Assembly: GCA_964538235.1 (NCBI GenBank) | Contig: CAZIFJ010000004.1 | Span: 1 to 39,834, forward strand | Length of the DNA: 39,834 bases | Reading direction: 5' to 3' | Source: Candidatus Woesearchaeota archaeon | GTDB taxonomy: Archaea > Nanobdellota > Nanobdellia > Pacearchaeales > GW2011-AR1 | Part shown: positions 5,572 to 33,531 of the stretch, one piece after another | Numbering within the stretch: position 1 is the first letter of the stretch | Layout: each line of letters opens with the position of its first letter | Notes under the pieces: model-generated | Told to the model about the DNA's origin: nothing | Databases searched by the model: none | What the model saw: the letters and a program-made list of their open reading frames with translations, nothing else | Translations under genes and position numbers: made by a program

Positions 5572-8500
5572 TTATCTTTTCTTAAGCCACTTACTCAAAA
5601 ATCCTTGGGTATATTCATGATCTGCAACGACATGTCCAGTAGGAGCGCTATACGTTTCTCCACCTGAAGGAGCACTATACGTTTCTCCACCTGAAGGAGC
5701 GCTATACGTTTCTCCACCTGAAGGAGCGCTATATGTTCCACTACTTGTACTACTTGTAGTAGTACCACTAGATGTTGTTGTTCCACCTGAATATGTCCCA
5801 GTAGTACTCCCGCTATATGTTCCAGAAGAATGAGTAGTTGTTGATCCAGAATAAGTTGTACTTCCACTATATGTTGTAGTTCCTCCAGTTGATGTTGTAG
5901 TTCCTCCACTATAAGAACCTCCAGAATAATCCCCACTACTTGAATATGTTCCTGTTGAAGAAGTTGTACCTGTTTGAGTTCCTCCACCCTGATTACTCCA
6001 TGTCCCATCACTACCTTGTGTCCAAGTATTTCCAAAATTATCCTGCACACTACCTGAATGTGTAGGAGAAGTACTTGTTGGTGGTACATAAACATAACCT
6101 CCCTCCTTCGCTTCAACTAATGCCCCACCAGAATAAGAGTAAGAATAAGACTGTTCCTTCCCACTAGCATCCTTGTAATGATACATCCCATAATCAGAAG
6201 TGGATGTTCCAGTACTTCCTGTTCCTGTTGAGCCAGTTTCTCCAGCACCACCACTATAAGTACTTGTCTTTGGATCCCAAGATTCTCCAGTTGTCGTCTT
6301 CCATGTCCCATCACTACCTTGTGTCCAAGTATTTCCACTTGCATCAGTAACACCACCACTTGCTGTTGCTCCAGTTCCTTCATGAGAAATTATTTCTCCA
6401 TTATCATTAATATATCCTCTTGAAGCATCATATCTATAATAATGATGAACAGGTGGTGTATAACTCTCTCCCTTTGAAGAAGCCCACTTACCTCCTTCAA
6501 AACTCCACGTTACTCCATCAGCAGTTGAATATGATTTCTGCTCCTCATGCCCAACAGGTGCTCCAATTGCAGTTCCTTGATAACTCCTCCCATCATTCGA
6601 GTTCCATTTCCCATCACCTTTGTAATTCCACTGCTCGCCGCCATAAGAATAAACATATTCTTTCGTTCTACTATCATAAGCAATATTGTTCTCATGAACA
6701 GAAACGTCAGGAGTATAAACTTTTCCAGAAACAGGATCAACATAATTATTATATTGTGGATTATAATCATATTGCGTCACAACCCCACTATCTGACTTCA
6801 TAGTAAATCCAGTAGGTTTATTTTGAATTTCTCCTCCACCAACAATATCATGATCCCCAGTAGGATAAGCAACTTTCTCAACAACGGTTCCGTCTTTAAC
6901 TACTTCATATCCAGTTGCAGAATATTTATAAGTCACAGTTCCTTCAGCAGTTTTCACCTCAGTAGTATATTGCTCATCTCCAGTTTTGTAAACAGGAGAT
7001 GGATCAAAACCCTCTGGATAATTCACTTCATACTTAATACCAAGATCAGTAGTATAACTATAACCTTTGTCATTAAATTTACATTTATATCCAGTCGCAG
7101 GATCTTTATATTCCTGATTTACAATAAAAGCCCCATTAAACTCAATTTTAGTTTCTTCACCTTCTACCGTCGTCTTCCGTTCAAAGAAATCAGGAGGAAT
7201 TTCCCCAATAGGAATCACTTCAACTTCTACTTCACCCTCTATTTTTTCTCCATCTTTTTTATGTTCATAATTCACAAATCCAGGAGGAACATACATTTCT
7301 CCACCATAAGCTTCAGCATAAGCGTCAGCAAACTTCTGTGATAAAATAGAAGTTGCTTCTTCAGCGCTCTTCCCTTCTGCTTGCAACTCAGCAAACTTTT
7401 TATCATAAACCTCACTCAATTTAGCTGAAAGCTCAGCAATTTTCTGTGCCTGTTCTTCTCGTGCTTTAAAGTATTCTACTTTTTCAGGATATTTTGCAAT
7501 AATCTCATCTTTAAATTGTATCCACTGCTCACTTGAAAAATGTTCATTTTTTTCAGCAAGTTCTTGTTGAATTTCTTCAGGTGTTTCCAAAAATTCCTCT
7601 AACTCACTAAAAGCACCTTTATCTCCATCATTAAATTGCTCAACAGCTCGCTCACTATTACTAATCAAATGCTCTGCAGCAGTCAATTGCCCAAAAGCCT
7701 CGCCACTATCACCATCCTCTTTTGCTTCTGTCGCTTGAGCAACTTTTAATTCAGCCTGCTCAACTAAAGTCTCCAACTGCCGTGCATCACTCTCAGCCCC
7801 AGCCTCACGTAAATCAGCAACCTCTACTCTCAAAGCAAGTAACTCTTCTTGAACAACATCAATTTTTTCACTAGAAGTCTCAGCCGCAAATGTTGTTGTT
7901 AACCCTGCATCTTCTTGAACACTCTCAACAATCAACTCAGCTTCTGCACCAGCAATATCACTATTCGTCGCAACAACATCAACAATTTCTTCTGTTTTTT
8001 CCTCAGTCGCAACAGAAAGTTCACTAGTCCCAGCATCTACAGTATGCATAAATTCAGAAATTTGTTCCTGAGTAACTTCTCCAGAAGCAGCTTTCTCTTG
8101 CAAAAGATCCTCAAAATTTTCAGAAAATTCCTGTAATTGAATACTATGATCACTCAACTGCACAACCTCAAGCAACTCAGAATCCTGCGGAGCAACATCC
8201 CCCTGAGGCTGTATTCCAGTCGCATCAACCTCACTCACATCAATCGTCGCAGTTTGCTCTGCCGCACTACTTAATCTTTCCTCAACATCACTCGCAAGTA
8301 CAAGTGCTCCTTCAATATCACCAGCTTCAAGCAAAACCTCAGCTTCAGCCATTCGCTCTGCCGCAATTTCAATATCAAATTCTGCTTGTGCATGCTCATC
8401 AAAAATAAAAGCATCCTGAACTCCTTCAGCAAAATGATCAAAAAAAGATAAAAACCCATTTTCAGGAGTAGTACCAGCATCAAACTCAAGTGTAAATTCT

Positions 8501-8640
8501 ACATCATTTTCCGTCTCTGTTCCAGAAACAACATCATGCGAATCAGCACTAGCAATAGAAAAAAAACTAAACATTAAAATAAAAATAGAAAAATATGTAA
8601 AAATTTTCTGAAGCGAATCTATTCCTCTCTTTTGTTTCAT
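5572..8640 (-). CDS. Large secreted/surface protein (1022 aa): signal peptide, acidic helical DUF5667-like region, beta-rich repeats, Ser/Thr/Gly tail
   Basis: Hydrophobic signal ending ASA, FFDHFAEGVQDAFIFD..IAAERMAEAE segment, duplicated GNTWTQGSDGTW, (TYSAPSGGE)x3, and C-terminal TGHVV...GFLSKWLKKR. Confidence 0.85.
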   Translation of the reverse strand: MKQKRGIDSLQKIFTYFSIFILMFSFFSIASADSHDVVSGTETENDVEFTLEFDAGTTPENGFLSFFDHFAEGVQDAFIFDEHAQAEFDIEIAAERMAEAEVLLEAGDIEGALVLASDVEERLSSAAEQTATIDVSEVDATGIQPQGDVAPQDSELLEVVQLSDHSIQLQEFSENFEDLLQEKAASGEVTQEQISEFMHTVDAGTSELSVATEEKTEEIVDVVATNSDIAGAEAELIVESVQEDAGLTTTFAAETSSEKIDVVQEELLALRVEVADLREAGAESDARQLETLVEQAELKVAQATEAKEDGDSGEAFGQLTAAEHLISNSERAVEQFNDGDKGAFSELEEFLETPEEIQQELAEKNEHFSSEQWIQFKDEIIAKYPEKVEYFKAREEQAQKIAELSAKLSEVYDKKFAELQAEGKSAEEATSILSQKFADAYAEAYGGEMYVPPGFVNYEHKKDGEKIEGEVEVEVIPIGEIPPDFFERKTTVEGEETKIEFNGAFIVNQEYKDPATGYKCKFNDKGYSYTTDLGIKYEVNYPEGFDPSPVYKTGDEQYTTEVKTAEGTVTYKYSATGYEVVKDGTVVEKVAYPTGDHDIVGGGEIQNKPTGFTMKSDSGVVTQYDYNPQYNNYVDPVSGKVYTPDVSVHENNIAYDSRTKEYVYSYGGEQWNYKGDGKWNSNDGRSYQGTAIGAPVGHEEQKSYSTADGVTWSFEGGKWASSKGESYTPPVHHYYRYDASRGYINDNGEIISHEGTGATASGGVTDASGNTWTQGSDGTWKTTTGESWDPKTSTYSGGAGETGSTGTGSTGTSTSDYGMYHYKDASGKEQSYSYSYSGGALVEAKEGGYVYVPPTSTSPTHSGSVQDNFGNTWTQGSDGTWSNQGGGTQTGTTSSTGTYSSSGDYSGGSYSGGTTTSTGGTTTYSGSTTYSGSTTTHSSGTYSGSTTGTYSGGTTTSSGTTTSSTSSGTYSAPSGGETYSAPSGGETYSAPSGGETYSAPTGHVVADHEYTQGFLSKWLKKR
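5641..5733. repeat. Coding 27-bp tandem repeat, ~3.4 copies (TYSAPSGGE)
   Basis: AGGAGCGCTATACGTTTCTCCACCTGA at 5641, 5668 (1 mismatch) and 5695, with a partial copy at 5722; no spacers. Confidence 0.95.
5998..6337. repeat. Identical 37-bp dispersed repeat within the surface-protein gene (5998-6034 and 6301-6337)
   Basis: CCATGTCCCATCACTACCTTGTGTCCAAGTATTTCCA occurs twice and encodes GNTWTQGSDGTW. Confidence 0.9.
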
Positions 8641-30814: not shown

Positions 30815-31416
30815 ATGTCATCATCTAAAGAAAAAGCATTTTCATTCCTATTTTTGATAAATGAAGAACCTTCGTTGCTTTTTCTCTTAGAATAATCATC
30901 ATCTTTGTCAATTACTTTTTCTCTTATAGGAATCTTGTAAGTATGTGAAGGATTGGAAGCAATTTCAGAGCTAAAATCTTTATCATCTCTTCTCAAATTA
31001 ATTCCTAAAGCGCTTTGAATTTTATTTATCAAAACATAATCTCTGAAAGGATAAGTTCCATTTTCAATTAATTTAATCTCATTTTCAGAAACGCCGACAG
31101 AATTTCCAAGTTGTTTTCGAGTCATATTCTTAGCCTTTCTCTCCCTAGCAACAATCCAATGATAATTATCAACTAAATCCTGCACAACTTGTTTTTTTCT
31201 CCAATCCAAAGGTCTCCTAAAATCATCAAATCCTAATCTTCCCTCAGTTAATTGCTTCATTTTATTTTTTTCAATTTCTGATTGAGAAACAGTTTTAACA
31301 ACTTGTGGCTCAGACTTTTTCAAAATTAACATTCCTTCTCTCAAGGCGAAAGATTGTGGAACCTTTACAATTTTCCCTTCATGTATCGCATCAACCAAAA
31401 CCTCACTCAAATCCAT
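30802..31416 (-). CDS. MBF1-like XRE/HTH_3 protein
   Basis: LVDNYHWIVARERKAKNMTRKQLGNSVGVSENEIKLIENG..KIQSALGINL. Start moved to MDLSE. Confidence 0.75.
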   Translation of the reverse strand: MDLSEVLVDAIHEGKIVKVPQSFALREGMLILKKSEPQVVKTVSQSEIEKNKMKQLTEGRLGFDDFRRPLDWRKKQVVQDLVDNYHWIVARERKAKNMTRKQLGNSVGVSENEIKLIENGTYPFRDYVLINKIQSALGINLRRDDKDFSSEIASNPSHTYKIPIREKVIDKDDDYSKRKSNEGSSFIKNRNENAFSLDDDIEIF

Positions 31417-31551
31417 AAATATAATGCTCAAATTGTATTTAAATCATTTATTGCTCTCTAAAACAATCTTTTGAAACTCATCAAATGTTACAATATCATC
31501 AACAATTTTAATTAAAAGAACATTTTAAAACAAACTAATCTTAAATAAAGA

Positions 31552-32126
31552 GTGAAAAAAACACTAATTCAATTCATAAAATTTGCAACTATTGGGACTA
31601 TTGGTACAATAATCCATTTTATAATTCTCTTTACTTTAACAGAATTCCTTGAAATCAACAACCCAACCGCAGCAAGCTGCGGGGTATGACTAACTGAAAT
31701 CCGACAAACGTAACTGACCCTTTGCACCTCCTTGCTCCTCGACGTATTTTTTTATTTTTTCAACCGCTATAATTGCTTAAAAAAAATTCTTTAGGTTATT
31801 GCTTTGCCCAGCCGCAGCAAGCTGCGGGGTAAAACTATTTAATTTATTATATAATTTCTTCTGCAATAGCCTTCCTAGTAGCAATGACAAACAATTTCAT
31901 ACTTAATAAAATATGGACTTTTAACGAAAGTCTAAAAGAAAAAGCACATTCAAAATACGCAAAATTTTTTATTATTAGCTCAACAGCTATGGCGATAAAC
32001 TTATCATTACTATATATAATAACAGAATTCTTTGGTGTTTATTATCTAATCTCTCAAATAATTGCTATTTTTTTCTCTCTATGGCTAAATTTCTTCGGAA
32101 ATAAATTCTGGACTTTTAGGAACTAG
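31552..32126 (+). pseudogene. GtrA-family membrane protein interrupted by a 188-bp insertion
   Basis: GTG start MKKTLIQFIKFATIGTIG..LTEFLEI | YYIISSAIAFLVAMTNNFILNKIWTF. Removing the insert gives 128 aa with two GtrA half-repeats (cf. TEFFGVYYLIS..NKFWTF). Confidence 0.9.
31657..31844 (-). mobile_element. Internally deleted IS200/IS605-type element (tnpA remnant)
   Basis: Two direct copies of the hairpin CCGCAGC-AA-GCTGCGGGGTA (31667 and 31812). Between them the minus strand encodes AVEKIKKYVEEQGGAKGQLRLSDFS* (31767-31690), the TnpA Y..Q helix. Boundaries can slide a few nt. Confidence 0.85.
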
Positions 32127-33531
32127 CATTTTTAAAAACAAATAGATTATATTTTCCACAAGTATATATCTCCTTGAAATTATTAGTTTGTTTATTTAAA
32201 TTAAACCAATCTCCATCGACATAAAAATAATAAATTTCTTTGTCAAGATAATCTTTTTTTAAAATTTTCTCAAGATTATTATAATTATTAACCCTGATAT
32301 TTGGTTTTAAGGTATAATAATAAACAGGAGAAAAATATTCTGTAATTACAGCAGAAGAATTAGATTTCTTTATAAAATCCATAACAGAAAAGAAACACTT
32401 TTTATCTTCTGAATTAATATTTTCATAAGAGTCAAAATAAAAATTAGATACTTTAAACAATAAAATAGACAAAAGTATAAAATATAAAATATAAAAAAGT
32501 AATTTAGATTTCTTAGAAATATAATAAAAAGCTAAAGAAGATATTACTAAAATAGATGGTGCAATTAATAAGAGATATCTGTCTTCTTTTGCAGGAGTTA
32601 AAGATGCACAAATAAAAATAATAAAAAACCATAAAGGGAAGAAATATTTTTTCGAAGGTTCTATTTTCAACTTAAATGATACGAAAAATCCAATAATTAA
32701 AAATGGTAGAAAATAAACATAATCTCTTATTAACGTTTTAAAATAAAATAAAATAGGCTTAAAACCCCAAATTACAGAAGATATAGAAGAAGAAAGTAAA
32801 AAACCAAAAACAGAACCATAACTAAAATAATTAAAAATAAACCAAGGTAAAACAACCAAAAAAGATAAAGAAATGCTATATAAAAAATTTCTCTCAAATA
32901 AAAAAGAAAAATTCTTATTTCTAATCAATAAAATAACAAAAAATAAAGGAAATATCCAAGGAGAATTATATCTAGAAAGAAAAGATAAACCAATAAATAA
33001 TCCAAATAATAAAGCACAATTTCTCTTAAATCTGAAATCACCTTCCAAAATAAACGCATTAAAGAAAAAATAAGAAGCGATAATCAAATATGATGTAGCA
33101 ATAGAATCATTCAATATTTTTGAGCCCCAAAAGAAAAAGGATGGTGTAATAAAAAATAGAATACTAGAAATTAAAGCCACCCTCTGATTAAACAATTTTT
33201 CACATAATAAAAAAAGAAATATTATTCCAAAAGAAGAAATTAAAGGTGTAATAAAATTAAGCCAAAAATCATTTAAGGAAAAAAGAGAAAGAAAAAAGAT
33301 AATAAATGGAAGCATTGGAGGTCTAATACCTGCATTTGGAAGACCTAAAGCAAAATCTGAAAAGCCGTTTGAAAAAGAATAATCTCCATAAAGAACTAAA
33401 TTTCTACCAAGATTGACATAAATTGTTTCATCCCAATATTTATATTGATTTAAAATAGACAAAGAACTCATTAATAAAAAAGAAATACAAGATAAAACAA
33501 TAACAAATAAAAAACTTTTTCTAAGCATCAA
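32116..33531 (-). CDS. GT-C fold glycosyltransferase (PMT_2/ArnT-like)
   Basis: YWDETIY, RPPMLP, LSFLSRY, LPWFIFN and KEDRYLL with ~11 TM helices. Confidence 0.88.
   Translation of the reverse strand: MMLRKSFLFVIVLSCISFLLMSSLSILNQYKYWDETIYVNLGRNLVLYGDYSFSNGFSDFALGLPNAGIRPPMLPFIIFFLSLFSLNDFWLNFITPLISSFGIIFLFLLCEKLFNQRVALISSILFFITPSFFFWGSKILNDSIATSYLIIASYFFFNAFILEGDFRFKRNCALLFGLFIGLSFLSRYNSPWIFPLFFVILLIRNKNFSFLFERNFLYSISLSFLVVLPWFIFNYFSYGSVFGFLLSSSISSVIWGFKPILFYFKTLIRDYVYFLPFLIIGFFVSFKLKIEPSKKYFFPLWFFIIFICASLTPAKEDRYLLLIAPSILVISSLAFYYISKKSKLLFYILYFILLSILLFKVSNFYFDSYENINSEDKKCFFSVMDFIKKSNSSAVITEYFSPVYYYTLKPNIRVNNYNNLEKILKKDYLDKEIYYFYVDGDWFNLNKQTNNFKEIYTCGKYNLFVFKNASS

Follow-up and report, generated by a model that had tools for sequence, protein, structure and literature searches.

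A PCNA-interaction motif at the C-terminus of archaeal IS200 transposases was described by Gómez et al. (2014, Genome Biol Evol 6:727, PMC3971601), and in Supplementary Table S5 of that work the tails end in YIENQGNQEEKEAYKQMKIIDFQ for M. barkeri, in QRIIDDF for M. mazei and in QRRLDDF for Methanosaeta. The same source reports that a peptide with the M. barkeri tail bound both M. barkeri PCNA and the beta clamp of E. coli, and that point mutants bound neither (PMC3971601). For bacteria, Lavatine et al. (2016, NAR 44:7866, PMC5027513) document an interaction of IS608 TnpA with DnaN in two two-hybrid systems; they state, as 'data not shown', that mutation or deletion of the C-terminal QTKAL left both the DnaN two-hybrid signal and excision unchanged, and they note that full-length transposases had yet to be shown to bind the clamp. 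Links between transposases and sliding clamps are summarized in a 2017 review (PMC5371812). Clamp binding by such transposases was thus proposed, and first tested biochemically, in 2014, and for this reason the locus described here opens no new question. Within a limited literature search, we found no paper on PIP-tailed TnpA proteins in small DPANN-type genomes.

Non-autonomous derivatives of IS200/IS605 elements, known as PATEs or MITEs, lack a transposase and keep the subterminal hairpins, and they invite comparison with REP-like hairpins. We analysed a stretch of 39,834 nt (hereafter the window), which constitutes contig C4 of a small archaeal genome (27 contigs totalling 618,678 bases, 84 % complete, 1.6 % contaminated, ∼29 % G+C) that encodes PCNA, NreA, RNase HII and PolD. 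The window contains the 3′ end of a decayed IS200-type tnpA, and in the intact parent of this gene the C-terminal tail most likely docked into PCNA; for this reading as a whole we would give a probability of roughly three in four. The features on which it is built are collected in Table 1.

Table 1. Features of the IS200-type relic, its surroundings and related units (window positions, except where another contig of the genome is named)
Feature	Position	Strand	Remarks
NreA, 386 aa	15096..16256	+	Nre_N E 1.3e-76, Nre_C E 4.9e-32; ends KQTKLNQFI
GtrA-family gene, N-terminal fragment, 35 codons	31552..31656	+	Frame continues into the element, stop at 31689
Internally deleted IS200-type element, 188 bp (LE + tnpA stub + RE)	31657..31844	-	GtrA orthologue alignment
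RE repeat unit	31662..31692	-	Hairpin 31667-31682, few bases past the stop codon
tnpA remnant VEKIKKYVEEQGGAKGQLRLSDFS	31693..31764	-	Residues 121-144 of a 144 aa TnpA; tblastn, alignments A2 and A3
PIP-like tail QLRLSDF (Q1, L4, F7)	31696..31716	-	One S before the stop; conserved QLxLxxF
Catalytic-helix Gln	31734-31732	-	
Catalytic-helix Tyr	31746-31744	-	
LE repeat unit	31807..31837	-	Hairpin CCGCAG-CTTG-CTGCGG at 31812-31827; direct repeat D1
GtrA-family gene, C-terminal fragment, 93 codons	31845..32126	+	Orthologue alignment
Hairpin-only units, ∼52 nt	C1:121735-121790; C20:∼90-145; C22:∼7570-7625; C8:∼8010-8060		

Identification of a tnpA remnant

The original prediction, made from the letters of the window, placed the end of a tnpA gene on the minus strand at 31767..31690, and translation of this interval returned the predicted peptide exactly, reading AVEKIKKYVEEQGGAKGQLRLSDFS up to a stop codon at 31692..31690. 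In the longer minus-strand translation of 31860..31687, KKLYNKLNSFTPQLAAAGQSNNLKNFF (which ends in KNFF) is followed by a stop, by AIIAVEKIKKYVEEQGGAKGQLRLSDFS, by the stub's own stop and by a serine, the first of these stops lying in frame at 31779..31777, four codons 5′ of the stub peptide.

In order to determine what this peptide belongs to, we searched the whole genome by tblastn with an intact TnpA of 144 aa from a related genome (L149 of genome G169). The sole significant match was at 31764-31693 of the window, where residues 121-144 aligned over 24 aa with 70.8 % identity (E = 2.2e-5). When the 28 aa peptide was in turn used as a query on 401 genomes from the same order, matches at E ≤ 1 were found in 23 genomes, the own genome included, and they fell on the C-termini of TnpA ORFs of ∼144 aa, in keeping with the prediction that it should recover Y1_Tnp proteins. 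The best of these (91-95 % identity) lay at contig ends in a genome of another genus (G307), and intact ORFs of 144-145 aa from G169 and G385 were 74 % identical to the peptide. Within it, the segment KKYVEEQ had been taken for the YxxxQ helix of TnpA, an assignment borne out by the alignment of its Y and Q with Y127 and Q131, which are invariant in alignment A2.

The Pfam Y1_Tnp profile (PF01797), which was carried by 16 of the 60 relatives searched, gave no match at E ≤ 10 in the whole of the own genome. This miss is expected, as the stub is only a 24-residue end piece, and its homology consequently rests on tblastn and the peptide search. The closest PDB matches to the intact L149 protein were 2ec2, ISDra2 2xm3 and 2f4f/2f5g (E 9e-19 to 6e-17), with the IS608 TnpA structures 2a6m and 2vhg following at E ∼2.5e-10; these alignments end at about residue 135, and no chain aligns to the QLxLxxF tail. 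Before tails were counted, we left out seven weak peptide matches with E > 0.06 that were not at a TnpA C-terminus, five of them inside ORFs of ∼500-950 aa (L156, L157, L159, L162 and L165) and two in open frames of 33 and 130 aa (L166 and L169), together with three rows that had no locus (G227:C24, G162:C6 and G162:C12).

A fragment of just 24-28 residues that Pfam Y1_Tnp does not score might in principle be no transposase remnant at all, its resemblance being due to chance. Against this stand the genome-wide E-value of a match that is the only significant one, the 91-95 % identity to TnpA ends of another genus, the placement between LE-type and RE-type hairpins as in full-length elements, and the fact that the stub element breaks up a gene. 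Taken together, these observations refute chance resemblance for practical purposes and leave it with a very small probability.

The HUH metal-binding motif and the N-terminal beta-sheet core are missing from the stub, of which only residues 121-144 are left. No ORF of ≥ 20 aa starting with ATG, GTG or TTG is present in its frame in the ORF list of the window, and the peptide stretch itself is without any of these three codons. As the stub has no start codon and no HUH motif, and is preceded closely by an in-frame stop, it is dead, and no protein is made from it.

Structure of the element and its insertion into a GtrA-family gene

The stub lies within an element that inserted into a GtrA-family gene and later lost ∼360 bp of its interior. 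What survives of it is the left-end hairpin, ∼45 nt of leader, the last 24 codons of tnpA and the right-end hairpin. The LE and RE units are direct repeats of 31 nt each, 90 % identical and 145 nt apart, and their subterminal hairpins are in direct orientation on the tnpA-sense strand at both ends, as in IS200/IS605 elements. Both stem-loops are present in the DNA minimum free energy fold, and the 20 nt core of the repeat occurs twice in the window, with none expected from 100 shuffles. The whole stretch of 211 nt, folded as ssDNA, was no better than its shuffles (z 0.02), the two short hairpins being its only notable structures. An Rfam search of window positions 31000-32600 returned no family for the hairpins, and a single sub-threshold snoRNA-like match (E 0.98) was located away from them.

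Full-length relatives are tnpA-only elements with the LE hairpin 35-40 nt 5′ of the ATG and, in every one examined, the RE hairpin closely 3′ of the stop codon. The extent of the deletion was read from a DNA alignment with the L149 element (A3), in which the LE leader aligns until ∼10 nt before the ATG and coding homology is back at GTT GAA AAA, corresponding to residue 121, for an interior loss of ∼360 bp.

The insertion site was located with the aid of GtrA orthologues, which a 93 aa query recovered from two related genomes at 59-63 % identity (E 3.3e-33 and 1.3e-28). Orthologues L181, L182 and L183 read TE-xxxx-YY at the insertion point, and the window reads TEFLEI (ATC at 31654-56), the insert, and then YYIISS (TAT at 31845); the frames of the two halves differ by 2 modulo 3, consistent with an insert length of 188 nt. 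As AAT is present at both junctions, where a 3 nt duplication is indistinguishable from target plus end, the boundaries can be placed only to within ∼3 nt. In all five copies (the element and four hairpin-only units, see below) the sense strand is preceded by ATT and ends in GATT. For annotation purposes, the gene at 31552-32126 is a GtrA-family gene broken by a 188 bp IS relic. As separate observations, an ATG is found at 31884 within the C-terminal GtrA piece, and the L181 orthologue is fused to a glycosyltransferase domain in an open frame of 373 aa.

Related hairpin units elsewhere

The 16 nt palindrome of the element recurs in its own genome, with ≤ 3 changes, at C1:121752, C20:107 and C22:7587 and in degenerate form at C8:8025; a fifth match, at C1:28479, has no flanking similarity to these and looks fortuitous. 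Each of the four former sites is a hairpin-only unit composed of the left flank of LE, a single hairpin and the right flank of RE, and all four are located between ORFs or at ORF ends. Judged by this composition, they have the appearance of products of recombination between LE and RE, or of minimal REP-like relics, and for annotation they can be recorded as IS200 end remnants.

Scanning genome contigs for the 18 nt hairpin ACCCCGCAGCTTGCTGCG yielded at least 121 loci in many bacterial and archaeal phyla. Amongst the matches listed, TnpA-like coding was present within 1 kb at only 7 of 121, the hairpin being widespread as a hairpin-only unit. The bases beside the 18 nt hairpin vary by locus and yet stay complementary (gaaga..tcttc, caaat..atttg). 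Several loci from Nitrospira and deltaproteobacteria have a longer left arm in common, which suggests MITE families.

The element itself shows the MITE/PATE trait of keeping both ends and losing the transposase. It might accordingly be asked whether it is still active, either as a mobilizable MITE/PATE-like unit or as the source of a small PCNA-binding peptide, since it has kept two intact hairpin ends that are 90 % alike and hairpin-only units of the same family occupy four other sites in the genome. We consider this highly improbable: the assembly (84 % complete) yielded no Y1 transposase, the stub frame is without a start codon and has a stop upstream, and the stub-bearing deleted form exists as one copy in the genome, with no copy bearing the same deletion seen in relatives. 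On these last two grounds the 188 bp form was also rejected as a multi-copy MITE. Other short frames in relatives proved to be truncations at contig ends, a full-length pseudogene (L153) and a different truncation (L164).

Conservation of the C-terminal tail

The stub ends in a peptide that is a candidate PCNA ligand, and the QxxLxxF motif originally read into QLRLSDF is there with the Q1-L4-F7 spacing, giving it the Q at position 1, the aliphatic residue at 4 and the aromatic residue at 7 of a PIP box. The textbook PIP is Qxx[ILM]xx[FY][FYW], from which the stub tail departs in having only one aromatic. The second aromatic, at position 8, is replaced by S in the stub and is variable or absent in its relatives; it is also missing in three of the four host PCNA clients described below (which have I, V or nothing there), the fourth having F.

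To establish how common such tails are, we scored the pattern Q..[LIMV]..[FYW] followed by ≤ 3 residues in 27 Pfam matches, all of them above the cut-off, covering the profile to its end and followed through to a stop codon, drawn from the loci of the 60-relative search and eight further stretches. With the Y1_Tnp profile ending at the YxxxQ helix, this is the fair sample. The tail, which the original prediction expected to be conserved, was present at 8 of the 27 complete C-termini, including all five members of the stub's own 'WGGEFWSDGG' subgroup. The remaining three were single proteins with different cores and linkers, namely L004 (ending GQLKIGDFFG), L223 (QRKLIEF) and L014 (QTKLGDFRS), and all other subgroups lacked it (0 of 19). 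Similar tails are therefore carried by at least three TnpA subgroups, on unrelated linkers of 5 to > 20 residues. By alignment, the stub's terminal QLRLSDFS corresponds to the conserved extreme C-terminus of the archaeal 'WGGEFWSDGG' subgroup. As 19 of the 27 TnpAs of related genomes are without any such tail, clamp binding by this means would not be general to the family.

In the sample gathered with the peptide, which is biased in that the query contained the tail, QLxLxxF was found at 20 of 22 loci outside the window. The two exceptions are both from genome G227 and end in QLKLSRV, with no aromatic; they are an intact copy (L173, contig C23) and a full-length decayed copy (L153, contig C20) of the same IS200, the latter having lost its start codon and acquired a frameshift, and both run to a stop directly after QLKLSRV. 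In alignment A2, which carries the same bias because its query contained the tail, Q, L and L are invariant and F is nearly so. Further afield, 74 of the top 150 cluster representatives from 1.84 billion proteins keep the C-terminal YxxxQ region, and by the patterns used PIP spacing is seen in 7 of these and a bacterial-type ending, QLxLF, in 14.

The codons of 15 sequences were examined next to the residues they specify. Q is written CAG in ten and CAA in five, F is TTT in eight and TTC in seven, L2 uses five codons and L4 four, and positions 3, 5 and 6 vary freely in residue. Synonymous variation at Q, L, L and F together with free residue change at positions 3, 5 and 6 indicates that the constraint acts on the peptide and not on the DNA. 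These data bear directly on the idea that the last codons overlap a cis-acting right end recognized by the transposase, with the likeness to a PIP arising as a by-product. The RE hairpin does start a few bases past the stop codon in all full-length copies, which places the gene end within or beside the functional right end. Nevertheless, a constraint on DNA is disfavoured by the use of five codons for L2, four for L4 and both for Q and F, as well as by the freely changing residues at 3, 5 and 6, and we regard it as very improbable.

PCNA clients in the host proteome

As an internal control, the pattern Q..[LIMV]..[FYW].{0,3}$ was applied to the C-termini of 606 ATG-started ORFs of ≥ 100 aa from the own genome. 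It was found in four, with 1.6 expected from composition, and these four were NreA (QTKLNQFI, the ending named in the original prediction as comparator and found as such in the window), RNase HII (QKTLGDF) and two PolD DP2 proteins (QENLGKWV and QTQLEKWF). The families of NreA, RNase HII and PolD DP2 are all counted among the PCNA interactors in a review (MacNeill, 2016, PMC4929162) that makes no mention of transposases (0 occurrences of 'transpos'). The stricter tail QL.L..F was present in none of the 606 ORFs. Comparison of 8/27 TnpAs with 4/606 ORFs by Fisher's test gave p = 1.6e-9, a value that is overstated as related sequences are not independent. Going by these C-terminal residues, the Q1-L4-F7 spacing of the stub equals that of the C-terminal PCNA-interacting peptides of the host's own NreA, RNase HII and PolD.

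Two side observations arose from this survey. The two DP2 genes, at C11:3177-6707 and C25:2806-6282, are both full length, are 54 % identical and each have their own C-terminal PIP; they are either real paralogues or derived from two organisms in one bin (the contamination estimate being 1.6 %). In addition, a protein of 1022 aa at window positions 5572-8640 (minus strand), whose only Pfam match is DUF5667, ends in TQGFLSKWLKKR and has a PIP-like pattern five residues from its C-terminus. It is not a known client, and may be a further PCNA partner or a product of chance.

Tail type and host clamp

Amongst the matches listed for the 18 nt hairpin, a Methanotrichaceae record has a tnpA next to the hairpin that ends in QLKLFDFK, and bacterial loci with the same hairpin end in QLNLF (L133, and L067 from a Pyrinomonadaceae MAG) or QLMLW (L087, from a Candidatus Moanabacter MAG). 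Profile A2 was then run against two sets of 201 genomes each, one from the class to which the Methanotrichaceae archaeon belongs and the other from the phylum of one of these bacteria. PIP spacing was found in 28 of 32 complete archaeal tails and in 0 of 33 complete bacterial ones, counts that describe a pattern and not a rate, given that A2 includes the tail columns and that the best 30 loci per search were taken, several per genome. The four archaeal exceptions look decayed (Q changed to E or K, truncation, stop), and 12 of the 33 bacterial loci, representing three distinct tails, end in the beta-clamp-type QLNLF or QLMLW. On these counts, the spacing of the tail follows the clamp type of the host within one TnpA clade.

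Such a switch matters for the question of what the tail does. In a real tnpA remnant, the tail could also have served the transposase itself, through packing against the core or a partner subunit, DNA binding or control of stability. This would agree with the dispensability of the clamp-like motif of IS608 for both DnaN interaction and excision (PMC5027513), with the solved TnpA structures, which align only to about residue 135, and with the invariant L at position 2, which is outside the PIP consensus. It is more difficult to square with a spacing that switches with clamp type (28/32 archaeal versus 0/33 bacterial, best 30 loci per search), with the presence of similar tails, behind unrelated linkers, in three or more TnpA subgroups, with a host proteome in which the only proteins so ending are PCNA clients, and with the binding of the M. 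barkeri tail peptide to PCNA (PMC3971601). As such, we consider a role confined to the transposase unlikely.

We thus favour docking of the parent transposase into PCNA. By analogy with published systems, a flexible tail of the intact protein would have docked in the hydrophobic pocket of PCNA, and the ssDNA transposase would in this way have been kept at the fork, the place at which its single-stranded substrates (hairpin ends and targets) would be exposed on the lagging-strand template. We infer such docking from the published binding of the M. barkeri peptide to PCNA and from the IS608-DnaN work, and this analogy supports the proposal, already part of the original prediction, that the parent transposase would have been recruited to PCNA.

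A broader, more tentative possibility, which we hold to be less probable than its opposite, is that the QLxLxxF tail is a swappable adaptor to the clamp of the host. It is suggested by the presence of the tail, in this archaeal order, in three or more TnpA subgroups whose linkers are unrelated, by the bacterial QLxL core that QLxLxxF holds inside PIP spacing, and by the association of the same 18 nt hairpin with QLKLFDFK in an archaeon and with QLNLF or QLMLW in bacteria. If true, an IS lineage that gained or lost two residues would be redirected from one clamp to the other, beta or PCNA, and such tail switches would mark transfers between the two domains. The idea is already hinted at by the M. 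barkeri peptide, which is reported to bind the E. coli beta clamp too (Gómez et al., 2014, PMC3971601); the new part would be one of scale and of extension to very small archaeal genomes.

Comparison with known systems

With the idea itself published, what the present locus contributes is a further host lineage, that of small AT-rich archaeal genomes, for tails matched to the sliding clamp, the finding that three or more TnpA subgroups of this lineage carry the tail, and a clean internal proteome control in which the other such endings belong to PCNA clients only.

As an element, it resembles PATEs, MITEs and REP-like hairpins in having no transposase, in keeping its subterminal hairpins and in the scatter of its hairpin-only units through intergenic DNA. 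It differs from PATEs and MITEs in that the stub form is single-copy here and in that the four hairpin-only units hold one hairpin and not two. With regard to the protein, the Y1 structures 2ec2, 2f4f/2f5g and 2xm3 have the HUH core and the YxxxQ helix in common with L149, whilst the tail is unaligned. H. pylori IS608 TnpA is likewise a Y1 HUH transposase of homologous fold that uses ssDNA at the lagging-strand template; its clamp, however, is bacterial beta and not PCNA, and its QTKAL is not needed for the interaction. IS608 furthermore carries tnpB, whereas the elements considered here are tnpA-only.

The tails of the host's NreA, RNase HII and PolD DP2 share with that of the stub the extreme C-terminal position, Q at 1, an aliphatic residue at 4 and an aromatic one at 7, but are attached to unrelated replication and repair proteins. 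The closest described counterpart is the IS200 TnpA of M. barkeri. Its host is a methanogen, unlike the small AT-rich archaeal genome (∼0.6 Mb) analysed here, in which the window copy is a dead stub of 24 codons, and the linker from YxxxQG to the motif is ∼11 residues in M. barkeri compared with ∼4 here. The two nonetheless have the same C-terminal region, WSDGGYIGTVG followed by Y-x3-QG, and the same motif at the extreme C-terminus, with Q at position 1, an aliphatic residue at 4, F at 7 and no aromatic residue at 8 (QMKIIDFQ in M. barkeri and QLRLSDFS in the window).
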